From NCBI GenBank assembly GCA_963753285.1, contig CAVWBT010000001.1:115194-179193 (forward strand): a DNA stretch of 64,000 bases, written 5' to 3'. The translations under genes were made by a program, and so were the position numbers. The number at the start of each line of letters is the position of its first letter. Within the stretch, counting starts at the first letter, position 1. Shown here piece after piece: positions 2,119 through 51,248 of this stretch. Under the pieces are notes generated by a model. It was given only the letters and a program-made list of their open reading frames with translations. It did not search any database and had not been told where the DNA came from. Source of the stretch: an uncultured bacterium. GTDB taxonomy: Bacteria > Actinomycetota > Acidimicrobiia > Spongiisociales > ZC4RG35.

Positions 2119-2276
2119 TGAGGCTCCTTCCTCCCTCAACCCCAAGCAGTACAACTACCGAAGCGTCACCTCAAGAGCAGGAAGTCACCTCGAAGCACCC
2201 GCCGAGACGAATGGTCGAGCTGAAGATCCTGACGAGCGGTGCCGAAGACAAAGAGGACAGACGAAGGACGGCAATC

Positions 2277-2390
2277 ATGGAACACGGACCGCAGGCAAAG
2301 GCATCTCAGGGTCGACTCGCAGAGGTCCTGGCAAACAGCGCTCTGGCAGTAGCTGCGCTCGTCACCGTCGTACACCTTCTCGGCGGGTGA
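2277..2390 (+). CDS. Tiny single-TM peptide (37 aa), family B copy 2 (..RLAEVLANSALAVAALVTVVHLLGG)
   Basis: ATG with aaggacgg RBS. C-terminus near-identical to the 46174-46305 peptide (..LVTVVHLLAG). Confidence 0.4.
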   Translation: MEHGPQAKASQGRLAEVLANSALAVAALVTVVHLLGG

Positions 2391-2501: not shown

Positions 2502-3641
2502 ATGGCCGGACCGCCAGCCGATAGCGACACGCCTGATCGAGCCGACCTCTGCAACTACGGCTCGCTCGGAGTGCTCAACACCCGACCGGACGGACTCCAG
2601 TGCCACATCTGCGGTGAATGGTGGACGAGCCTGGCCGCCCACACTCAACGCACCCATGGCCTCTCCGCTGACGAGTACCGGGCGACGTTCGGGCTGATGA
2701 AAAAGACGAAGCTGGTTGCACCCGTCGTCAGGGAGGCTCAGTCCAAGAGGGCCACCGAACACCTTCGTCGGATTGGCGGTCCTCACCGTGAGACCGTGAA
2801 GACGCTTTCGACCGACGAGCGGCGCCAAAGGGCTCTGAAGGCTGAGCGGCGAGAAGAACACGAACTCAACTCGCCGGCACCGGAGCGGGCGAACCCGATG
2901 CTCGAAGCCCGATTCGGCCCCACCAAGCGTGTCCCAGATGACGTTCTCCAGGACGCCGTCAACGTATTCGTCGAGGAGCTGCCAGAGCGCTCCAGGGGAG
3001 TCTGGGTGCGCACCGGCGGGCGGTTGGGTGTCGAGTGGTCGACGGCCCGGATGCTCGTCTACACGGCGGCTGACAGGGGCATGATCGAACTCTCCGGGAC
3101 ACGCACCGACCTCACTGCCCGCCACCATGACGGCACCGAGATCGTCCCGCCCGATTCGTTCCCGGGTCGTCTCGCCACCCTGCAGAGGTATTCGGAGGCG
3201 ACGGGGTCGGCGGCGGTGCCTCGATCTGCCGTGTTCGAGGACGTGGCGATCGGGAAGTGGGTCGAGTCGGTGAAGAACCGATGGCGCAACGGCACTCTCA
3301 ACGACGAACAGAAGGAGGTGCTCGAAGTGCTGCCGGGATGGCGGTGGCCGGAGTCGGGACCGTACTCCGGCGGGTCGGTTCCCCCGTCGGACTCGGAGGT
3401 CGGCGTGAACGTGGCGATGTGGAACTCAGCCTTCGAGCGGCTGGGGCAGTTCGTCGAGGAGCACGGGCATGCCCGAGTTCCGGCTCGACATCGAGACGAC
3501 GACGGGTTCACGCTCGGAACATGGGTCGGAGCGCAGCGGTGGAAGCACAGGGACAGCGAGCTACATGGTGTTCTGGTTCAGCGCCTGGAGCGACTCCCGG
3601 GTTGGGTGTGGTCACCGCCGATTGGAGGACCTCACGAGTAG
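2502..3641 (+). CDS. MucR/Ros-type C2H2 zinc-finger fused to two helicase-associated (HA) domain repeats
   Basis: N-terminus LQCHICGEWWTSLAAHTQRTHGLSADEYRATFGL resembles the Ros/MucR zinc finger. C-terminal repeats W..FERLGQFVEEHGHARVP..H..DGFTLGTWV..QR match the HA-domain pattern. Confidence 0.55.
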   Translation: MAGPPADSDTPDRADLCNYGSLGVLNTRPDGLQCHICGEWWTSLAAHTQRTHGLSADEYRATFGLMKKTKLVAPVVREAQSKRATEHLRRIGGPHRETVKTLSTDERRQRALKAERREEHELNSPAPERANPMLEARFGPTKRVPDDVLQDAVNVFVEELPERSRGVWVRTGGRLGVEWSTARMLVYTAADRGMIELSGTRTDLTARHHDGTEIVPPDSFPGRLATLQRYSEATGSAAVPRSAVFEDVAIGKWVESVKNRWRNGTLNDEQKEVLEVLPGWRWPESGPYSGGSVPPSDSEVGVNVAMWNSAFERLGQFVEEHGHARVPARHRDDDGFTLGTWVGAQRWKHRDSELHGVLVQRLERLPGWVWSPPIGGPHE

Positions 3642-3669: not shown

Positions 3670-4671
3670 TCAACGGGTGGGGATCCATACAACTGCGTGT
3701 TGTCCGTCTGGTGCCTGCAACGTTCCGACAGCGACTCCTTTGTTGTTCAGGTCGAGTCCGCGTCCGCTCCACCCTTCGGGTACCGGCAACTCCACCAGGG
3801 ATCCGTCGCTGCTCACAAGCACCGGCGTCGGCGGCTCACCTGTAGCGGTCGAACCGGCCATTACCCCATGGTCGTTGATCGCCGTAAGGCTCAACCCTTC
3901 ATACTCGGTGACGCCGTCTTTGGCGTCCCACAACACTCCGACGACGTTTATTGATGTCGTCGCAGACACGGTGTACACCACCTGCCCTCGATTGTTGATG
4001 TCCGGAACCCCCGGTGGTGGCCCCGTCATCTCGAAGTAGGCGACATGGGTGAGGCCGCCGTCTCGTTCCCGGATCACGAAATGAAGTCCGTCCGGGTACC
4101 CCCCCGGTACGAAGTGGCTGCTCGTGATCCCGAGTACTTGGCCGTGGTCATTGATTCGCACTGCATTCATCAGCCCATCTTCGGCGAGGCCGACTCGTCC
4201 GTCCTTGAGTGTCCAGAGGTAGGCATCGCCCATCTCGCCGCCCACCACGGCGCCGTGACGGTTGATGCCTCCGGGTGACGGCCAGACCGTAATCTCGATG
4301 GTTGAGACCTTGCCGGTGCGTCGATCCCAATCGACGTAGTACGTCTGGTTCTCCTCACAACAAGCCTGAGCGACGATCTCGCCGTGCTTGTTGATCCCAT
4401 AGGCACTGCTCCACGATTGCGACCCCCAGCCCGCTACAACATGAAGGTCGGTCATGGTCCCGTCCGGCTGCCACACGAAGGCATGCCCACTCGGTGACGG
4501 CTGACCATTGCCGACCACTTCGCCCCGATCGTTCACGGCCAGAGCGAATCCAGCGCCGAGATCGATCAGCTCGTACTCGTCGACGGCAGGATCCGCCCAG
4601 GCGATCGGCGTGAGAAACATCGATCCGACCACCAGGCAAAGCAACAGAATGAGATGGTTTCGATACCGCAT
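3670..4671 (-). CDS. Secreted HAF-family extracellular repeat protein
   Basis: Signal peptide. Repeated INxxGxVVG motifs and HAFVW, as in the HAF extracellular repeat family. Confidence 0.55.
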   Translation of the reverse strand: MRYRNHLILLLCLVVGSMFLTPIAWADPAVDEYELIDLGAGFALAVNDRGEVVGNGQPSPSGHAFVWQPDGTMTDLHVVAGWGSQSWSSAYGINKHGEIVAQACCEENQTYYVDWDRRTGKVSTIEITVWPSPGGINRHGAVVGGEMGDAYLWTLKDGRVGLAEDGLMNAVRINDHGQVLGITSSHFVPGGYPDGLHFVIRERDGGLTHVAYFEMTGPPPGVPDINNRGQVVYTVSATTSINVVGVLWDAKDGVTEYEGLSLTAINDHGVMAGSTATGEPPTPVLVSSDGSLVELPVPEGWSGRGLDLNNKGVAVGTLQAPDGQHAVVWIPTR

Positions 4672-4924: not shown

Positions 4925-5569
4925 CTAAATGCCGACGTCCCACTCCCGCCGCTGCATGGCGTCCACCACATCCTTCGGGGCCAGATGCGACAGGTACCGG
5001 TCCGTGGTCGCCAGTGAGGCATGCCCGAGTTGCCGTTGGATCACCGGCACCGGCACACCCTCCATCATTAACTCAAACGCCATCGTGTGCCGGAGGCCGT
5101 GAGGGTGGACCCGCTTCTCGATCCCGACCTTCCCGGCGAGCCGGGGCAGCAGCGTTCGCACATACGACGGCTTCAACGGCTTGCCCTTCAAGGTGCAGAA
5201 CAGAGGTGCCCGAGCAGACACCCCTAGCTCTTTCCGTCGGTCAACCCAACGCTGGACGATCGCCATCGCCCCGGGATCGAACCCGACCGTTCGACGGCGG
5301 TCACCCTTCCCATGGAGCACGGTGATGGTCGCCTGCCCGGCGTCGATGTCCTTGGGTTTGAGGGCGAGCGCCTCGCCGAGTCGAAGACCACCCCGGTAGA
5401 GGACGGTGATCAAGGCCCGGTTCCTGATGCCGGTCGGGGCCGTGTTCGAGCAGGCCCGGATCATCGACTTGACCTCATCGGGGGTGAGCACCTCGGCTGG
5501 GTAGGTCTGCCCTTTGTTGGGTGCGGTGCGGCCAGCGTGGTAACCGGGCTGGATGACTGGTGAATTCAT
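4925..5569 (-). CDS. Tyrosine recombinase / phage-type integrase, short catalytic-domain-only form
   Basis: Catalytic motifs HGLRHTMAFELMMEG..LGHASLATTDRYLSH (R..H..R/H..Y). Only 214 aa, no N-terminal SAM-like domain. Confidence 0.8.
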   Translation of the reverse strand: MNSPVIQPGYHAGRTAPNKGQTYPAEVLTPDEVKSMIRACSNTAPTGIRNRALITVLYRGGLRLGEALALKPKDIDAGQATITVLHGKGDRRRTVGFDPGAMAIVQRWVDRRKELGVSARAPLFCTLKGKPLKPSYVRTLLPRLAGKVGIEKRVHPHGLRHTMAFELMMEGVPVPVIQRQLGHASLATTDRYLSHLAPKDVVDAMQRREWDVGI

Positions 5570-43410: not shown

Positions 43411-43846
43411 GGCTTCACCCTACCGACGTCTCGGATCTCTTCTCGCTTCCGGCCGCGCGCACCTGAGCATCGCTGTTGAACCCCGACGGGAGGTGTCATG
43501 CCGTATCAACGAGAGGCCTGCTTCCCGCCGATGCAGCGGATCGCCTGGCTGCTGGATGCGTGGGTCTGCTCTTCGGCCCCTTCACAGGAAGATGTGCTGG
43601 TTCCGCCGTTCATCCCGTTGGTCGCTCTCGTCTGGATCGGTCACGACTGGCTCAAACGTGGACCCGTCGAGGACTGGAAGGATTCGCTGCCGCACTTCCG
43701 CCGACCGGGACAGACACCTTCGCCTCGTGATCAGCCAAGCCGACGCCATGTCCGTCTCGGAGGGCTAGTCACGTCGGGCTTCTGTGAATGGTCCTCCAGT
43801 TTTCTCGCGTGTCACGCCGATGGGAGGAAAGGCGCCGAAGAGTGGG

Positions 43847-45757
43847 ATGGCAGGAATGCGGATAGGAATCAATTGGGATCACAGGACCGGTAGACCCACG
43901 GCGATCCTCGCGATCCTCGCGATGATCTCGACGTTGTTCGCAGCCTCTGGGACCGCCGCCAGCACCGAATCCACCGGGACGATCGACGTCATCGTGCGCG
44001 AGGCGGCTCCACTCACCGATGCCGCCGAGTCCCTCGTGGAACGCCTCGGGGGCACGGTCCGTGACAATCTCGGCATCATCGGTGGATTCACCGCCACCGT
44101 CCCCGCCGACGCCATCGGGTTGCTCACCACCAGCCCCGACATCGAAGCGGCAACCCCTGACGGCACGGTCCAGTTCGCAGCGGCCGGATGGGATGATGCG
44201 ACAGCGCTCGGCGACATCGACTTCCGCAGCTACTCCGGATCGCTCTATCAGATCACCCGGACGACCAAGGCCGTCAATGCCTGGGGCAAGGGATACACCG
44301 GATACGGCGTGGACGTTGCCCTGATCGACACAGGCGTGGCTCCATTGCGATCGCTCCCGGCGTCGAGAGTCGTCAACGGGCCCGATCTCTCCTTCGAATC
44401 CCAGAACCCCGATCTCCAGTACCTGGACTCGAACGGGCACGGCACCCACCTGGCCGGCATCATCGCCGGGACCGACGTGTCGCTCGACTTCACGAGCCCG
44501 GGTGACAGCAGTGTCTTCATCGGCATGGCACCGGGCTCGCGGATCATCAGCCTCAAAGTCGGCGCCCACGACGGCTCTGTCGATGTGTCGCAGGTCATCG
44601 CCGCCATCGACTGGGTCGTGCAACATCGCAACGACCCGGGCTTCAACATCAGGGTCCTCAACCTGGCGTTCGGGACCGATGCGACCCAGTCGTATGTCCT
44701 CGACCCCCTCTCGTACGCCGTCGAGCAGGCATGGAAGAACGACATCGTCGTGGTCGTGGCTGCCGGAAACGATGGAAACCAGTCCCCGCTTCGGAACCCG
44801 GCGATCGATCCCTTCGTCATCGCAGTCGGATCCGGATTCGCCAGCGACTTCAGAGCCGACAACAACACGAGGGTCGTCTATGACTCGCTGTCGGACTTCT
44901 CCAACTGTGGGACGTCGGAGCGCGGAGTCGACATCCTGGCCCCTGGCAAATCCATCACCAGCCTCAGGACACCCGGCTCGTACGCCGACGTGAACAACCC
45001 CAAGGCGCGAGTCGGCGCCGACTACTTCCTGGGTTCGGGCACCAGCCAGGCCGCTGCGATCGTGTCCGGCGCAGCAGCGCTCATCATCGACGCATGGCCC
45101 GACATGTCTGCCGACGAGGTGAAGTACCTCCTGACGGCCAATGCCACGCCGGTCAACGGGGCCTCGGCGACCTGCCAGGGCGCCGGAATGATCGCTCTGG
45201 ACTTCCTGGCCAGCAACACCAAGAAGGCCCCGAACACCAGGGGAGCGACCCAGACGTTCGTGCCATCGGTTGGCGACGGAACCCTCGAGGACGCTCGCGG
45301 CACACATCACGTCGAGATGCAGAACGCCGAGGGAAAGAACGTCGTCCTCCGCGGCGAGCAGGACATCATGGGAAGCCCCTGGGTCGGCTTCAACACCACG
45401 ACCACCGTGTGCGCCAAGGAGGGGAAGGGCAAGAACGCCGTGATCGCCTGTACCGACGTGCTCGAACCCGTCGAGACGCTGTGGGACGGCGGCAGCTGGA
45501 ACGGTCGGAGCTGGTCGGGGACCTCGTGGTCCGGAGACACGTGGTCCGGTCTCAGCTGGTCCGGGACCTCGTGGTTCGGCTTGAGCTGGTCCGGCCTGAG
45601 CTGGTCCGGTCTGTCCTGGTCCGATCAATCCTGGTCCGGGCTGTCCTGGTCGGGTAGGTCGTGGTCGGGTAGCTCGTGGTCGGGCGCCTCGTGGTCCGGT
45701 CTGTCCTGGTCCAGCGGCGGCACCGCAATTTCCGACCAGGGTGTGCGCTGGAGCTGA
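43847..45757 (+). CDS. Secreted subtilisin-like S8 serine peptidase with I9 propeptide and C-terminal (SWSGx)n repeat tail
   Basis: Catalytic triad contexts VALIDTGV, HGTHLAGIIAG, GTSQAAAIVSGAAALI. Signal peptide. The 3' end encodes about 18 SWSGx pentapeptide repeats. Confidence 0.75.
   Translation: MAGMRIGINWDHRTGRPTAILAILAMISTLFAASGTAASTESTGTIDVIVREAAPLTDAAESLVERLGGTVRDNLGIIGGFTATVPADAIGLLTTSPDIEAATPDGTVQFAAAGWDDATALGDIDFRSYSGSLYQITRTTKAVNAWGKGYTGYGVDVALIDTGVAPLRSLPASRVVNGPDLSFESQNPDLQYLDSNGHGTHLAGIIAGTDVSLDFTSPGDSSVFIGMAPGSRIISLKVGAHDGSVDVSQVIAAIDWVVQHRNDPGFNIRVLNLAFGTDATQSYVLDPLSYAVEQAWKNDIVVVVAAGNDGNQSPLRNPAIDPFVIAVGSGFASDFRADNNTRVVYDSLSDFSNCGTSERGVDILAPGKSITSLRTPGSYADVNNPKARVGADYFLGSGTSQAAAIVSGAAALIIDAWPDMSADEVKYLLTANATPVNGASATCQGAGMIALDFLASNTKKAPNTRGATQTFVPSVGDGTLEDARGTHHVEMQNAEGKNVVLRGEQDIMGSPWVGFNTTTTVCAKEGKGKNAVIACTDVLEPVETLWDGGSWNGRSWSGTSWSGDTWSGLSWSGTSWFGLSWSGLSWSGLSWSDQSWSGLSWSGRSWSGSSWSGASWSGLSWSSGGTAISDQGVRWS
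45485..45722 (+). repeat. 15-nt tandem repeat (agctggtccggNctg)n inside the S8 protease CDS, encoding (SWSGL)n
   Basis: Read directly from the sequence. Confidence 0.7.
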
Positions 45758-46173
45758 ACTCCCCACACGAACCAGCCATTGGCCCTCGGCGCGCTCAACA
45801 GTGACGACTCCAGCCTGTCTGGCGGGTTGGTCGGATTCCCAGGACGATGGACTGGAATCAGCGCGATCGGGCCGTTTCGGCGGTTATCGGGGCCTCGAGT
45901 TGTTCGAGCACGACGATCAGCCCGTGCGTCGAGCACATGTACATGCCCCGGATCACCAGCGATGCATCGCGATCACAAGAGCTGCAGCGAATGACACGAA
46001 TGTGATTACTCATGTGTGATTCATCGGATGCGCACCTGTCGGCTTGAGGACTTCTTCGCAGGAACCCGGCAAGATGCCGCCCTGCTGAGCGATGACGACT
46101 TCGATGGAACCAGCACATGGAACGGTCCACTGCCGGCGCCGCCGCGAGTGGTCCAGCCGTGATGCTCCGTCGG

Positions 46174-46305
46174 TCAGCCAGCCAACAGGTGAACGACAGT
46201 CACGAGCCCCGCCACGGCAAGAGCGATGTCACCCAGGATCTCTGCGCGTCGATTCTCTGATTCGCCCGAATTCTGTTGGTCTTCCGTGATCTTCGTCTCT
46301 TTCAT
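46174..46305 (-). CDS. Tiny single-TM peptide (~44 aa), family B copy 3 (..RRAEILGDIALAVAGLVTVVHLLAG)
   Basis: gaggga RBS. C-terminus near-identical to the 2277-2390 peptide. Confidence 0.4.
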   Translation of the reverse strand: MKETKITEDQQNSGESENRRAEILGDIALAVAGLVTVVHLLAG

Positions 46306-46547
46306 GTCCATCCCTCTACCCGTCGGCACGACGAACGAGATCTTCAGGCCAAGCCGGACGCCGCTGGAGTGCGCGCCCCCGAACTGGATCAGGTGAGCGA
46401 GAGAGGTACGATTCCCCCCACCAGAGACATCAGTGCCGATGCTGTCGGGGTTGGATCCCGATTCGAGGCATCGGCGCTCGGTTCGGTGCGCGAGCCCCAG
46501 GACGGGACTCACGCCCACAATCGTCAATGATGACAGGCACAATCCCC

Positions 46548-46620
46548 GCCCGAGTAGCTCAGGGGATAGAGCAACTGCCTCCTAAGCAGTAGGTCGCAGG
46601 TTCGATTCCTGCCTCGGGCG
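46548..46620 (+). tRNA. tRNA-Arg (anticodon CCT)
   Basis: Cloverleaf by eye: acceptor stem GCCCGAG/CTCGGGC, D-arm AGCTCAGGGGATAGAGC, anticodon loop CTCCTAA, T-arm GCAGGTTCGATTCCTGC, discriminator G. Confidence 0.8.
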
Positions 46621-46635
46621 CAGTGCCTTTGCTGG

Positions 46636-47010
46636 CCGACTTCTGGACAAGGCCGCAACGGCTTCGGAGGGAATCACGAGTCCAGAACAGACGCCGGTCG
46701 GCCAGGGCTGCCGCACTCGACCCCCGCCTCCGATCCCGCACGCCAGACACCCGGCCGGCCGACTTCTGGACAAGGCCGCAACGGCTTCGAAGGGAATCAC
46801 GAGTCCAGAACAGACGCCGGTCGGCCACGGCTGCCGCACTCGACCCCCGCCTCCGATCCCGCACGCCAGACACCCGGCCGGCCGACTTCTGGACAAGGCC
46901 GCAACGGCTTCGAAGGGAATCACGAGTCCAGAACAGACGCCGGTCGGCCACGGCTGCCGCACCCCCGCCTCAGATCCCGCAGGCCAGAAGCCCGGCCGAC
47001 CGGCTTCTGG
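46636..47010. repeat. 123-bp tandem repeat, 3 copies plus a degenerate partial fourth, immediately 3' of tRNA-Arg; each unit has an imperfect hairpin (ggccgacttctggac...gtccagaa..ggtcggcc)
   Basis: Period measured as 46636 to 46759 to 46882 (123 nt each). Copies are more than 95% identical. Confidence 0.8.
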
Positions 47011-47096
47011 AAAGTGCCGCCCGACCGGCGAGGGAAACGATCGGACACCCCTCGACGCTCCGCTCCGTTCGATGAGCGCTCAGCCGGGAGCAGCGT

Positions 47097-48029
47097 TCAG
47101 TGGTGATCCTCGGGCGGCGGCACAACACCCCGCTGCTCGGCGATGCGCCAGTAGGCCTGTGGGATGCGGTACGTGTCGAAGTTGAAGAGCGTCTGCTTGT
47201 ACGAGTTGGTGAGATCGAGATCGACCCGAGCCACGATGACCTCGTCACCGGTGGTCACGGCCTGGGTGATGATCTGCCCCGACGGTGCAACGATCGCCGA
47301 GTGCGCCAGCGACTCGACGCCTTCCTCGAATCCGCCCTTGGCCACGCCCACCACGAATGTGCCGTTCTGATACGCCCCGGCCTGCATCACGAGGTGATTG
47401 TGAAAGGCCTGGAGCGAGTTCTGCGTCGGATCGGGTGCGTAGTGAAGCGGCGTGTTGTATCCGATGAGGATCACCTCCACTCCCTGGAGCCCCATCACCC
47501 GATAGGTCTCGGACCAGCGCCGATCGTTGCAGATGGCCATGCCGAAGAGCCCGCCGAAGGCACGCCACACCGGGAAGTCGTCGCCCGGCTCGAAATAGTG
47601 GCGTTCGGCGTGCTGGAAGTCTCGCCACTGCTCGTCTTCGGAGTGTCCGGGGATGTGGACCTTCTTGAACACCCCGATGGTCCGGCCATCCCGCTCGACC
47701 AGGTGGTAGACGTTGAATCGCCGTCCGTCCTCCTGCTTCAACGCGTAGCCGAGAGCGAACCCGACCCCGAGCCGACCGGCCTCGTCCCAGAGGGGCTTGG
47801 TGAATCGGTTCGGCATCTCCGTCTCGTAGTAATGGTCGGCCTCTTCGAGTGGGGCATGCCAGCGGGGAAAGAACGTGGTCAGAGCCAACTCGGGAAACGC
47901 CACGACACTCGCGCCTTGCTCCGCTGCGTCGCGCAGGAGGTGGATCAGTCGCTCGACGACGTCGTCCCGAGAGTGATCGCGCTGCACCGGCCCCATCTGG
48001 GCGGCGGCGAGGGTGAGGATACGGCTCAT
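47097..48029 (-). CDS. N-carbamoyl-D-amino-acid hydrolase (D-carbamoylase)-like nitrilase-superfamily enzyme
   Basis: Many blocks match Agrobacterium DCase from memory (VVFPELALTTFFPRWH, KKVHIPGH, FQHAERHYFEPGD, ICNDRRW, YRVMGLQGVE, GYNTP, MQAGAYQNG, IVAPSG). Confidence 0.75.
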   Translation of the reverse strand: MSRILTLAAAQMGPVQRDHSRDDVVERLIHLLRDAAEQGASVVAFPELALTTFFPRWHAPLEEADHYYETEMPNRFTKPLWDEAGRLGVGFALGYALKQEDGRRFNVYHLVERDGRTIGVFKKVHIPGHSEDEQWRDFQHAERHYFEPGDDFPVWRAFGGLFGMAICNDRRWSETYRVMGLQGVEVILIGYNTPLHYAPDPTQNSLQAFHNHLVMQAGAYQNGTFVVGVAKGGFEEGVESLAHSAIVAPSGQIITQAVTTGDEVIVARVDLDLTNSYKQTLFNFDTYRIPQAYWRIAEQRGVVPPPEDHH

Positions 48030-48237
48030 CGGTGGTCCACCTCCGGTGGGTTCGCCCGACCAGCGCGGCACCTCGGAGTCATTGCTACGTTTGCACATCC
48101 GGGGCCGCCGGACTGTGAGCCGCGAGTGGTCAGACTCGGTCAGCCCACATTGTGCAGAGCGCCGAACACGCAGTCAATTGGGCGAACCGGTTCCGGGAGC
48201 CGGCGCACTCCCCCTCGTGACACGACCCAGCTCGGCG

Positions 48238-49179
48238 TCAGGGCGTGATGTGGGTTCCGGCGTCGCCTGCGAGGGCAGCTTCGATGTTCCCGGGCGTAGT
48301 GATGATGGCACGCCGGCCCCCGCCCTCGAGGAAGTCGATCACGGCGGCGATCTTCGGCTTCATCGAGCCCGCCTTGAAGTGGCGTCCCTCTGCGAGGTAC
48401 CGCTTGGCGTCGCCGAGGCTCAGTTCACGAACGAACCGCTGATCCGGGGTCCCGAAGTCGAGTGCCACCTGCTCGATGGAGGTGGAGATCAACAACAGTT
48501 CGGCGCCGATGTCGTTCGCGAGGAGAGCCGAAGCGTGGTCCTTGTCGATGACCGCAGGCACGCCAGTGAGATCACCCGCTTCGTCGGCCACGACGGGGAT
48601 GCCACCGCCGCCCGCGGCGATCACCACGAACCCACCATCGAGGAGGTGTCGGATGGCATCGATCTCGACGATCCGGATGGGAGCGGGCGAGGCCACGACC
48701 CGACGCCATCCTCGATCAGCATCCTCGACCACGTCCCAGCCTTCACGTTCATGGCGATCGCGAGCCTCCGCCTCGGTGAGGAACGACCCGATGGGTTTGG
48801 TCGGCGTGGTGAACGCCGGGTCGTCCGGGGACACCTCCACCTGGGTCACCACGGTGGCGACCGACTTGTCGATGCTCAGGCTTCGGAAGTCCTTGAGGAT
48901 GTTCTGCTGCAGGAGGTAGCCGATCGCCCCCTGGGTGTCGGCCACGCACACCTCCAAGGGGACTTCGTGCAACTCGTGGCGGGCGAGGTCCGATCGGCGC
49001 AGGATGAATCCCACCTGGGGGCCGTTGCCATGCGTGATCACGACGTCCCATCCGCCGGCGACCATCGCCGCGATGTGATGATCCGTCTCGGCGGCTGCGA
49101 GGTACTGATCCTGGACGGTCTGATGTTGGGGGTCGGTGATGAGGCTGTTTCCGCCTATCGCCACCACAGCGCGTGGCAT
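48238..49179 (-). CDS. arcC: Carbamate kinase
   Basis: AVVAIGGNSL N-terminus, ITHGNGPQVG, and VVIAAGGGGIPVV amino-acid-kinase motifs. Confidence 0.8.
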   Translation of the reverse strand: MPRAVVAIGGNSLITDPQHQTVQDQYLAAAETDHHIAAMVAGGWDVVITHGNGPQVGFILRRSDLARHELHEVPLEVCVADTQGAIGYLLQQNILKDFRSLSIDKSVATVVTQVEVSPDDPAFTTPTKPIGSFLTEAEARDRHEREGWDVVEDADRGWRRVVASPAPIRIVEIDAIRHLLDGGFVVIAAGGGGIPVVADEAGDLTGVPAVIDKDHASALLANDIGAELLLISTSIEQVALDFGTPDQRFVRELSLGDAKRYLAEGRHFKAGSMKPKIAAVIDFLEGGGRRAIITTPGNIEAALAGDAGTHITP

Positions 49180-49221
49180 CGGTGTTCCTTTCCTGCCCGG
49201 TGCTCTCCAGTGGAGAGCCTG

Positions 49222-50196
49222 TCACATGGTGAGCGCCATGACCGCTTTCTGGACGTGGAGTCGGTTCTCGGCCTGGTCGTACACGGCGCTCTGGGGACCG
49301 TCGATCACGGCATCGGTCACCTCGATGTTGCGATCGGCCGGCAGCGGATGCATGTAGATCGCGTTGGAGCCGGCCAGCGCCATCCGGTCCTCGTCGACGA
49401 TCCAGTCCTGGTAGCGGGCGCCGATCGATGCCGATTCCCCTTCGTCGGTGGTGGTGAGCATCGCCCCCCACGACTTGGCATACACCACGTCGGCGCCGCG
49501 GATGCCATCCTCGAAGCTGTCGGTCACCTCGAACGAGCCGCCCGCCGACTCGGCATTGGCTCGGGCGTGAGCAACGACCTCCGGCATGAGGTCGAACTCG
49601 GGCGGACGGGCGAGGCGGACCTGCATGCCGAATCGAGTGGCGAGCAGAATGAGGCTCTGCGGGACCGAAAGCGGCTTCTGGTAGCTGGACGCGTAGGCGT
49701 AGCTCACGTCCAGCGTGACCTCCCTGGGGTCACCCTTCTTCTCGACGATCGTCAGAAGGTCGGCGAGCGCCTGGAACGGGTGATACCGGTCGCATTGCAT
49801 GTTGAGGACCGGAACACGCGAAGCCTCGGCGACATCTCGGATGTAGGAATTCCCCATCCCCCAGTCCACCTGGCGGATGGCGATACCGTCGTTGTACCGG
49901 CCCAGGATCACGCCGATCTCCTTGGCGGTGTCGCCGTGAGCGATCTGAGTGGACTTCGACTCGATGAACTGGGCGTGCCCGCCGAGCTGGGCCATACCCG
50001 CCTCGAAGCTGGCTCGGGTGCGAGTGGATGAGAAGAAGAACAGCATGGCCAGGACCTTGTCCCGCAGCATCGGATGTGGGGTGCCCAGCGCCCGGTCCAT
50101 CTTCAGGCGTTTGGCGACCTCGAGTACGGTCTCGAGCTCTTCGACGGTCCACTCCTGGGTCGTGATCATGTCACGGCCCCGCAGTCCGGTGATCAT
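49222..50196 (-). CDS. Ornithine-carbamoyltransferase-like transcarbamylase with atypical motifs (HPLP instead of HCLP, SWG instead of SMG)
   Basis: STRTR carbamoyl-phosphate motif and HPFQ. HPLPADR and KSWGAM replace the canonical OTC motifs. ATGA overlap with the upstream gene. Confidence 0.65.
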   Translation of the reverse strand: MITGLRGRDMITTQEWTVEELETVLEVAKRLKMDRALGTPHPMLRDKVLAMLFFFSSTRTRASFEAGMAQLGGHAQFIESKSTQIAHGDTAKEIGVILGRYNDGIAIRQVDWGMGNSYIRDVAEASRVPVLNMQCDRYHPFQALADLLTIVEKKGDPREVTLDVSYAYASSYQKPLSVPQSLILLATRFGMQVRLARPPEFDLMPEVVAHARANAESAGGSFEVTDSFEDGIRGADVVYAKSWGAMLTTTDEGESASIGARYQDWIVDEDRMALAGSNAIYMHPLPADRNIEVTDAVIDGPQSAVYDQAENRLHVQKAVMALTM

Positions 50197-51158
50197 TCTG
50201 CCGCTCCCAACACGAGGGCGAGCAAGGCCATCCGCATCACGACCCCGTAGTAGGCCTCCTGCCAGTACCGAGCGTGACGAGTCGCATCCACTGTCGGGGG
50301 CAGTTCGTCCATTCGGGGCAACGAGTGGATGACGATCGCGGACGACTTCGCGTCTGCGAGCACGTCGTTGTCGACGACGTAGTTGGCCGGCGTCGCGGCC
50401 ACCTCCCCGCCGCGCTCGTCCCTGCCCTTGGTGTAGTCGGGCTGTACGACCGGCTCGATGAACACGATGTCGGCCCGGCCGATCACCTGGTTCACGTGTT
50501 CGGCCCGCTCGATGTGGAGGCCACGGCCCCGAACCTCATCGATGAGGCCGTCGTCGGGCACGTACTCGTCGGGAGTGATGTAGATCAGCTCGGTGTCGAA
50601 CTGGGTGAGCGCGTAGGCAAGCGAGTGCATCGTGCGCATTCGCCAGTCGCCCACGGCCACGAAGGTCTTGCCGTCGACACTCCCCAGTTCCCGTGTGATG
50701 GTGTACAGATCCGTGAGGACCTGGGTGGGGTGCTCGCCCCAGCCATCTCCACCGTTGATGATGGGAATGGACGCCCACCGGGCCGCCTCGTGCGGCGCAC
50801 CCTTCTGAGGGTGGCGCATCACGATCACATCCCCGTAGTACTCGAGCATCCGAACGGTGTCCTTGATGCTCTCCTGGTAGAAGTCGCCGGCCCGTGTCAT
50901 CTTCGGGTCCGCGAACCCCGTCACGACGCCACCCAATCGCAACATCGCGGATTCGTGGGCGAGCCGCGTTCTCGTCGACGCCTGGAAGAAGGCGCTCACC
51001 AGAATCTTGTCGCTCAGCAGGTCGAGTCGGCGTCGCTCGCGGGGAACCGGCTCGAACCGGTCGGCAACCGCGAAAACCTGCTCGAACTCGGCGCGTTCGA
51101 ATCCGTTCAGCGACAGAATGTCGCGCCCCGCAAAACTTCGCATGCCAGCTCCTGTCAA
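50193..51158 (-). CDS. Aspartate-carbamoyltransferase-like (PyrB-like) transcarbamylase
   Basis: FFQASTRTRLAHESAMLRLGG matches PyrB FFEASTRTRLSFE. Also HPTQ and HSLPR. Confidence 0.65.
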   Translation of the reverse strand: MTGAGMRSFAGRDILSLNGFERAEFEQVFAVADRFEPVPRERRRLDLLSDKILVSAFFQASTRTRLAHESAMLRLGGVVTGFADPKMTRAGDFYQESIKDTVRMLEYYGDVIVMRHPQKGAPHEAARWASIPIINGGDGWGEHPTQVLTDLYTITRELGSVDGKTFVAVGDWRMRTMHSLAYALTQFDTELIYITPDEYVPDDGLIDEVRGRGLHIERAEHVNQVIGRADIVFIEPVVQPDYTKGRDERGGEVAATPANYVVDNDVLADAKSSAIVIHSLPRMDELPPTVDATRHARYWQEAYYGVVMRMALLALVLGAAE

Positions 51159-51248
51159 TGGACTTTCGACAGCTTGGGACGCCGACCCGGTCTTTCCTAG
51201 TGACGTTGGTCCCGATGCGGAGGGCGGCTTCGGCCGTGTTCCCCGGAG

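Follow-up and report, generated by a model that had tools for sequence, protein, structure and literature searches.

The tandem array that follows the tRNA-Arg(CCT) gene in the 64,000-nucleotide stretch of DNA analysed here (the window) is probably a lineage-specific tandem amplification, of the minisatellite or VNTR type, of an intergenic spacer carrying a low-copy palindromic element. The amplification would have originated by slippage or recombination, and the element may serve a transcript-end role or persist as a REP/MITE-like sequence. The element belongs to a small, low-copy palindromic family that lies beside gene 3' ends in related Acidimicrobiia and is previously undescribed: neither the arm sequences nor any Acidimicrobiia repeat family turned up in the literature searched.

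The sequence-only reading of the locus, a tRNA-Arg(CCT) gene followed by three 123-bp tandem units, was borne out by ARAGORN, Rfam, and Tandem Repeats Finder (Table 1). The tRNA gene, which ends at 46621 (or 46620) by the ARAGORN and Rfam calls, is the sole tRNA gene in the window, lacks an encoded CCA, and is identical in sequence across the relatives, being invariant in the locus alignment. That the array adjoins it immediately also held, although the gap measures 9-12 nt and not the 16 nt first given. Tandem Repeats Finder reported a repeat at 46634-47020 (period 123, 3.2 copies, 94% matches, score 667), and a repeat search resolved head-to-tail units at 46631-46753, 46754-46876, and 46877-46999, with the 26-nt start of a fourth copy at 46995-47020 (77% identity). 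The decayed fourth unit was thus rightly recognized over its first ~26-40 nt, but it gives no match on the plus strand to R1, a covariance model built from the element copies and run over the window with filters off.

Units 1 and 2 match at 120 of 123 positions (three differences). Units 2 and 3 match at 114 positions and are identical over their first 86 nt, after which unit 3 shows a 5-nt deletion and four substitutions (inter-unit identities of 98% and 93-97%). A 33-nt unit probe matched the window three times, with none expected. The array lies between the tRNA gene and a convergent gene whose closest homologues, 92-98% identical, are named N-carbamoyl-D-amino-acid hydrolase in Acidimicrobiia MAGs; the PF00795 assignment is carried by the 98%-identical homologues. 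This hydrolase gene is the last of an OTCase-OTCase-carbamate kinase-hydrolase cluster.

Table 1. Coordinates of the features at the tRNA-Arg(CCT) locus, in positions of the window.
Feature	Position	Strand	Basis
Probable eroded remnant (~17 codons), 5' end of Xer-like tyrosine integrase gene	46360..46420	-	DNA alignment
tRNA-Arg, anticodon CCT	46548..46621	+	ARAGORN; Rfam RF00005 (72.2 bits)
Hairpin element, copy 1	46629..46720	+	Covariance model R1, 106.5 bits; fold -33.1 kcal/mol, z -3.7
Tandem array, units of 123/123/118 bp plus first ~26 nt of decayed fourth	46631..47020	+	Tandem Repeats Finder; repeat search; unit pairwise identities
C-rich linker of unit 1, repeated in units 2 and 3	46706..46753	+	Locus alignment with relatives
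Hairpin element, copy 2	46752..46843	+	R1, 98.8 bits
Hairpin element, copy 3, linker with 5-nt deletion	46875..46966	+	R1, 94.1 bits
Decayed fourth copy and rest of spacer to the stop codon of the convergent gene	46995..47096	+	Repeat search; no R1 match on +
Convergent gene, N-carbamoyl-D-amino-acid hydrolase-like (CN_hydrolase)	47097..48029	-	Homologues with PF00795

As had been read from the letters, each unit contains the inverted repeat GGCCGAC-TTCTGGAC ... GTCCAGAA-(9-nt CAGACGCCG)-GTCGGCC around an interior with a small stem. The outer stem is (C)(T/C)GGCCGAC/GTCGGCC(A)(G) in every unit, the inner stem TTCTGGAC/GTCCAGAA is parted from it by the 9-nt bulge CAGACGCCG on the 3' side only, and the two stems close an interior of ~30-31 nt that holds the small GCCG-CAA-CGGC stem. 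In copy 1, the parts are the stem CTGGCCGAC/GTCGGCCAG, the stem TTCTGGAC/GTCCAGAA, the 9-nt 3' bulge, a 31-nt interior, and the tail GGGCTGCCGC. Folding, which had been proposed as a check, gave -33.1 kcal/mol for the 73-nt hairpin on the plus strand (z = -3.7 vs shuffles) and -28.2 kcal/mol on the minus strand (z = -1.8), and the folding energy of whole 123-nt units was not exceptional.

Across the family, the element is ~90 nt long and consists of a 15-nt 5' arm (GGCCGACTTCTGGAC), a variable interior of 29-33 nt, a 28-nt 3' arm (ACGAGTCCAGAACAGACGCCGGTCGGCC) that includes the 9-nt bulge, and the short conserved tail GCTnCCGCC. The arms (15-17 nt) constitute terminal inverted repeats of the kind used to define MITEs. 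Stem cells are paired in 89% of cases across nine copies, vs 22-49% for slid-partner controls, and three stem pairs show compensatory changes. This pairing and compensatory evidence for the stems is modest and does not tell the strands apart; counts of G-U vs A-C likewise favour neither strand. About 43 contiguous nt are near-perfectly conserved, the unpaired bulge and the tail included. Since a near-invariant bulge and tail exceed the needs of a mere hairpin, sequence-specific recognition by some protein is suggested.

The same locus was compared in relatives (L001-L004 and L006-L010), which are contigs from metagenome assemblies found via hydrolase homologues, the nearest being 89-94% identical to the window at the DNA level. 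The tRNA-Arg(CCT) gene converges on the hydrolase gene in L001-L004 (96% amino acid identity), L008 and L009 (98%), and L006 and L007 (93%), and the spacer between the two genes is ~240-250 nt in the relatives vs 475 nt in the window. L008 and L001-L004 carry one element copy each (R1 scores of 93 and 73 bits, respectively), L009 has two, one good (104.8 bits) and one decayed (37.9 bits), and only the outer stem, bulge, and tail are left in L006 and L007 (27.6 bits). Copy number at the orthologous locus is thus directly observed to differ (partial, one, two, and three or more), which indicates a lineage-specific amplification of the VNTR type and agrees with the earlier suggestion of a minisatellite. 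The 97-98% identity among units shows that the expansion in the lineage of the window is recent.

The flanking DNA points to how the repeat unit was assembled. In the alignment, the C-rich linker of the window corresponds to what comes after the single hairpin in L008, L009, and L001. Because the linker is ancestral local flank in the relatives, the repeat unit combines the hairpin with local DNA, the outcome expected of tandem duplication. In addition, the octamer GGCCGGCC occurs twice in the single-copy L008, 119 nt apart, and brackets the segment that is repeated in the window; such paired octamers are a classic substrate for a first duplication by slippage or illegitimate recombination. 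The amplified 123-bp segment comprises one ~90-nt palindromic element with ~35-50 nt of local flank. We infer that the 8-nt GGCCGGCC direct repeats gave rise to the first duplication, through slippage or illegitimate recombination between them, and that later expansion proceeded by unequal homologous recombination or replication slippage, helped by the long hairpin.

The element also occurs at loci unrelated to the tRNA gene. Metagenome contigs and all GTDB representatives were scanned for exact matches to 22 bases of the 3' arm, a search biased to conserved 3' arms. Beyond the orthologous contig, the scan found L012 (a metagenome contig), L013 (MAG Ww501), and L014 (MAG Ww195); among the GTDB representatives, two genomes had one exact 22-mer match each. 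In L012 and L013, the element begins 8 nt past the stop codon of an ORF: that of an EAL/HDOD gene in L012, where it faces a gene for a YkuD L,D-transpeptidase, and that of a hydrophobic ORF of 25 codons in L013, where the gene it faces encodes an alpha/beta-hydrolase. The L014 element is antisense to both of its neighbours, lying between a DUF480 gene (at its 3' end) and the promoter of a glutamine synthetase gene. No tRNA gene is near the element in any of the three within the 3.3-8 kb examined. The 5' arm is identical at 15 of 15 positions in all three loci, though it lies outside the search pattern, and the rest of the 3' arm and the tail GCTnCCGCC are likewise conserved. The interiors resemble one another across loci no more than shuffled sequences do (44-64% identity vs 49 +/- 5), and the linkers are not conserved between loci.

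Overall, four non-homologous loci, in four or more genomes, carry the element. Tandem second copies recur independently in L009, in L013 (71.8 bits), and as a relic in L014, where the interiors of copies a and b are 79% identical. With R1, no further copies were found in the 64-kb window (filters off) or in ~150 kb of related loci. The family looks low-copy because each MAG gave a single exact match, with one locus seen per genome sampled. A possible fifth member in L005 (8588-8611; five mismatches) was not backed by the covariance model. Searches of plasmids, phages, and viral contigs with the unit or the arms returned nothing relevant.

An empty site was directly observed for one of these loci. 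Using homologues of the L014 DUF480 protein (~80% amino acid identity), we collected 18 Acidimicrobiia loci with DUF480-glutamine synthetase synteny, and none of the 18 contains the element. Their spacers are 177-260 nt long vs 350 nt in L014, and the region upstream of the glutamine synthetase gene is conserved in the alignment. The position just before this region is filled differently from lineage to lineage: by microsatellites, by a simple GC hairpin (GCTTCGC-NNN-GCGAAGC), or by the element in the case of L014. These varied occupants suggest that the element fills a "gene-end hairpin slot" and comes and goes, which favours insertion or replacement over a vertically conserved gene-specific regulator. 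The element may therefore be gained at spacers sporadically, by insertion or replacement, rather than conserved by vertical descent. What would suggest mobility is its patchy distribution alone: no parent transposase or high copy number was seen, and no target-site duplication was visible at four loci.

As to what the element does, it is probably a transcript-end hairpin, a role that fits because it is positioned at gene ends, mostly between converging genes, and is stable on both strands. A stable hairpin of this type might block transcription or protect RNA 3' ends between converging units. At the locus in the window, a strongly transcribed tRNA gene would fire antisense into the 3' end of the hydrolase operon, and more copies could mean a stronger barrier. 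Alternatively, the element might be a selfish REP/MITE-like palindrome that is tolerated at gene ends. The evidence is against canonical intrinsic termination: there is no U-tract after the hairpin on either strand, and the scan of 45700-47400 for promoter-like and terminator-like consensus sites was empty on both strands. The invariant bulge and tail likewise speak against a plain terminator.

It is also possible, though unlikely, that the element is a functional structured or protein-binding RNA, such as a tRNA 3'-trailer sRNA or a 3'-UTR element, that was multiplied for dosage, with the C-rich linkers (CCCCC, CCUCC, UCCC) acting as anti-Shine-Dalgarno seeds. Arms, bulge, and tail that are conserved at unrelated loci around a varying apex resemble many protein-bound RNA stems; some of the pairs are compensatory, the plus strand folds better by z-score, and a co-oriented gene or tRNA precedes the element in three of the four contexts, twice with a spacing of only 8 nt from the stop (L012 and L013). 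However, with Rfam 15 only the tRNA reached gathering score, and a scan of 46600-47100 gave zero matches at E<=10, which also rules out a known ribozyme or riboswitch, and no promoter-like site was found within or ahead of the units. The antisense orientation of the L014 element to both neighbours, the linkers that vary between loci, the strand-neutral G-U vs A-C counts, and the patchy presence at syntenic loci, unlike a gene-specific regulator, all count against this explanation as well. A pseudoknot between bulge and interior was considered and rejected, as partial complementarity is present in some copies and is not maintained.

Rather unlikely, in our judgement, is that the hairpin is the recognition site of a dedicated protein, either a recombinase or transposase acting on folded single-stranded DNA or an RNA-binding or processing factor, and that the independently arisen tandem copies at three loci are the product of this protein and not of passive slippage. 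With a recombinase or transposase, the element would be a small mobile hairpin of a new type, with a preference for duplicating beside itself. The conservation of bulge and tail described above is the feature that such recognition would account for.

A related explanation, which we consider improbable, is that the hairpins are DNA recombination sites, of the attC type that folds as single-stranded DNA, or mark the boundary of an integrative element with a Xer-like integrase, so that the array would record repeated site-specific recombination. The layout is attC-like, with an outer 7-9-bp box, an unpaired spacer, an inner 8-bp box, and a variable terminal structure. An integrase is also found beside the tRNA in relatives. 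In L001 and L002, a 300-amino-acid Xer-like tyrosine integrase gene starts ~140 nt from the 5' end of the tRNA and diverges from it, and the genes beyond it have weak phage-family matches, replication-initiator-like and major-head-protein-like. L010 has an integrase pseudogene beside the tRNA, L008 a remnant of 63 codons, and the window and L009 an eroded trace of ~50 nt, which in the window is too decayed for tblastn. In the same stretch, positions 46404-46415 match the tRNA T-arm weakly over 12 nt, no more than chance would give in this region. Homology between L010 and the window stops at the tRNA 3' end, where the array begins, and in L010 the four-gene carbamoyltransferase/carbamate kinase/hydrolase block is found on the other side of the integrase-tRNA pair. 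This is clearly a region prone to recombination. The expectation that the tRNA locus is an integration hotspot therefore stands for the locus, but not for its 3' side, since the integrase features are all 5' of the tRNA.

Several observations speak against the hairpins as sites for this enzyme. The R''/R' consensus RYYYAAC/GTTRRRY is absent, and there are no ORF cassettes between sites. The integrase of the relatives scores 71 bits against TIGR02249, for which the integron-integrase cut-off is 265; it resembles a generic phage Xer-like integrase rather than an integron integrase. In L010, integrase and tRNA occur with no hairpin, and in L012-L014 the hairpin is present and no integrase was found; because the two occur apart, we do not link them. 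Tandem duplication, and not insertion, predicts what is seen between the hairpins, namely a linker of ancestral local DNA. The proposal that the array is a scar of integration and excision likewise found no backing: the best local alignment of tRNA and unit is no better than shuffled controls, a second copy of the tRNA 3' end is absent from the window with up to three mismatches allowed, no integrase lies downstream (3') of the tRNA, and the window's one other integrase-like ORF lies at a distance of 41 kb. The first two of these results rule out an att-type duplication.

The copy number itself might be an artefact, with the true locus holding one or two units if the repeat is longer than the reads. 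The count may be mis-assembled if the window comes from a short-read assembly, given the near-identical units; the related contigs are metagenome assemblies, and units 2 and 3 are identical over a long initial stretch. However, substitutions and an indel tell the units apart in a consistent gradient, which assemblers rarely invent, and L009 and L013 independently show tandem copies. We therefore regard an assembly artefact as very improbable. The idea that the array encodes a repetitive protein, for which one could cite long ORFs spanning it on both strands and a period divisible by three (123 nt being 41 codons), is refuted for practical purposes, because five of the six frames are open (unsurprising at ~65% GC), the three listed ORFs over the array have no Pfam match, concatenated unit translations in five frames matched nothing at E<=10 in a database of 5.8 billion protein sequences, a 5-nt indel sets units apart, one of the ORFs would share sequence with the tRNA gene, and the spacers of the relatives have non-triplet indels and no gene called. 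The overlapping ORFs had already been dismissed as artefacts in the sequence-only reading, which named a conserved coding gene containing the unit in relatives as the finding that would overturn it; no gene is called in this spacer in the relatives.

Other assignments were also considered. As the earlier reading stated, the array is not a CRISPR, since the units abut one another and the linker recurs with them. A dif/terminus-type single-copy site does not apply, as GC skew shows no switch here and the element does not correspond to a 28-bp Xer site. A tRNA-like or pseudo-tRNA interpretation of the 7-bp outer stem was rejected because ARAGORN finds none, the next 8 bp stack coaxially and form no cloverleaf, and there is no similarity to tRNA. 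A type III toxin-antitoxin system with ToxI-like repeats was rejected because the next gene is convergent and encodes a CN_hydrolase, not a co-oriented toxin.

Taken alone, the array is a routine case of a spacer duplicated in tandem, of practical value mainly as a copy-number marker for this Acidimicrobiia lineage; it also cautions annotators against the spurious ORFs that cross it. Of greater use is the definition, in an uncultured actinobacterial class with no described repeat families, of a low-copy palindromic element that is conserved in sequence and comes with clear boundaries, the covariance model R1, and a comparison at one empty site. The dispersed family, the single-copy orthologous versions, and the integrase features on the 5' side were all absent from the sequence-only reading. 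Should the element act as a terminator or insulator, high-GC bacteria would offer an example of a transcript-end signal with no U-tract; if a protein recognizes it, it would be a pointer to a new mobile hairpin or RNA-protein system.

Families of the REP/BIME type typically have tens to hundreds of copies per genome. REP sequences, ~35 nt long, fall within a class of 20-40-nt palindromes that have a GTAG-type head and go with a RAYT (Y1 transposase) gene, and their orientation alternates in BIMEs. A REP/RAYT system was therefore rejected here: the element is ~90 nt long, has no GTAG head, and is low-copy, and no link to a RAYT or other transposase was found. Bacterial stem-loop repeat families, including REP/BIME, ERIC/IRU, Correia/NEMIS, RUP, and SMAG, have been surveyed (Cozzuto et al., 2008; PMC2267715). 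The element shares with REP/BIME, ERIC, Correia, and SMAG repeats its nature as a non-coding imperfect palindrome in spacers at gene 3' ends or between convergent genes, often clustered and patchy in distribution. Repeats of the REP/BIME type are thought to act as RNA hairpins in transcript-end protection or termination, the same role as considered above for the element. By contrast with REP/BIME, the element has a free 30-nt interior, forms direct repeats, and was seen at one locus per genome.

The MIRU-VNTR loci of Mycobacterium are similar in being head-to-tail intergenic repeats of 40-120 bp with lineage-variable copy number in a high-GC actinobacterium. MIRUs are located within operons, where they overlap stop and start codons with small ORFs, and no long hairpin underlies them, whereas the unit of the array described here is a hairpin plus linker between convergent genes, and the variation seen is between lineages. 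Integron attC sites and CALINs are comparable as bulged hairpins with two conserved boxes and a variable terminal structure, located just past stop codons in same-orientation series. The element differs from them in its base, GGCCGAC/GTCGGCC (matching 5/7 consensus positions in each box), in the absence of an integron integrase and cassettes, and in having its 9-nt bulge on one strand only.

Intrinsic terminators, including the hairpins with no U-tract that are predicted in Actinobacteria, are also stable GC-rich hairpins a few nt past a tRNA or stop codon, between convergent genes. Terminator sequences are not conserved across unrelated loci, whereas the element, which lacks a U-tract, is much longer, bulged, and conserved in sequence across unrelated loci. 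The RNAs of tRNA 3' external transcribed spacers, such as 3'ETS-leuZ of E. coli, which is released by 3' processing, resemble the array as structured sequence directly downstream of a tRNA; the element differs in occurring also away from any tRNA. In kind, the array and its element are a bacterial intergenic palindromic repeat and minisatellite.

At the orthologous locus in two relatives, L006 and L007, in which tRNA-Arg(CCT) likewise converges on the CN_hydrolase gene, the hairpin element occurs in a reduced form that keeps the outer stem, the bulge and the tail. The inner hairpin (~55 nt, TTCTGGAC…GTCCAGAACA) is absent precisely between two GAC triplets, and this form looks like a derivative of the hairpin element that arose by palindrome-mediated deletion.

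A Xer-like tyrosine integrase gene lies ~140 nt off the 5′ end of tRNA-Arg(CCT), in divergent orientation, and is found in states from intact to an eroded trace (see table). The integrative element at this tRNA sits on its 5′ side, an unusual placement among tRNA-targeted elements. In the relatives with the intact gene, L001 and L002, genes near the integrase match phage replication-initiator and major-head-protein families. The window also holds, 41 kb from the tRNA, an integrase-like ORF of 214 aa, which has the catalytic Phage_integrase domain alone (135 bits), with the N-terminal SAM-like domain missing, and shares 27% identity with the integrase of L001.

Two OTCase-like genes, a carbamate kinase gene and the CN_hydrolase gene form a four-gene block that retains 82-93% DNA identity while its neighbours differ from relative to relative. 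It is flanked by the tRNA and DUF937 in the window and in L001 and L006, lies on the opposite side of the integrase-tRNA pair in L010, and in L005 has PALP genes to one side, an HTH_22 gene to the other and no tRNA. The block behaves like a movable cassette.

Positions of features in the window and in related contigs
Feature	Position	Strand
Reduced hairpin element	L006 7057-7100; L007 3583-3626	
Region of the Xer-like integrase, gene intact	L001 7386-10009; L002 4172-8985	
Xer-like integrase pseudogene	L010 1439-2275	
Integrase remnant, 63 codons	L008 5302-5486	
Integrase trace, eroded (probable)	window ~46360-46420; L009	
Integrase-like ORF, 214 aa	window 4925-5569	-
Four-gene block	window 47092-51218; L010 2800-6938; L005 2779-5800	
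Peptidase_S8 gene	window 43784-45757	+
15/45-nt coding tandem repeat within it	window 45482-45712	
Conserved region upstream of glutamine synthetase	L014 ~1195-1320; L015 ~3790-3853; L025 and L032, equivalent	
Short microsatellites	L012 1176-1215; L015 ~3700-3790; L025 ~3540-3620	
Small-protein gene just upstream of tRNA-Arg(CCT)	window 46177-46377	-
Its two paralogues, near window start	window 2211-2387; 922-1017	+; +
Strongly hydrophobic ORF, 25 codons, MKKALKILVLVAIIGVIGKIIIDNA	L013 4975-5052	-

Upstream of the tRNA, the C-terminus of the subtilase (Peptidase_S8) carries ~14 copies of a W-S-G-x-S pentapeptide, encoded by the 15/45-nt repeat; 30/45-nt repeats occupy the same region of the gene in L006 and L007 and of a partial gene in L008.

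In the Acidimicrobiia contigs L012, L015 and L025, short A/G-rich or CA-rich microsatellites, such as (CCAAGAG)n, (CCAAGGG/CCAAAGG)n, (CACAGTT)n and (GTCATCT)n, occur in the same type of gene-3′-end spacer as the hairpin element. Relatives share a strongly conserved region upstream of their type-II-like glutamine synthetase gene; it starts with GAAAC-N6-GTTCAC, which resembles an actinobacterial GlnR box.

The small protein (~65-80 aa) encoded just upstream of the tRNA has a hydrophobic C-terminal helix (…ILGDIALAVAGLVTVVHLLAG) and shares 75% identity with an 81-aa gene call in L009 (2340-2585). In L013, where the hairpin element stands at a non-homologous locus, the 25-codon hydrophobic ORF ends 8 nt before the element, and its product, if made, would resemble small membrane peptides or the toxins of type I systems.
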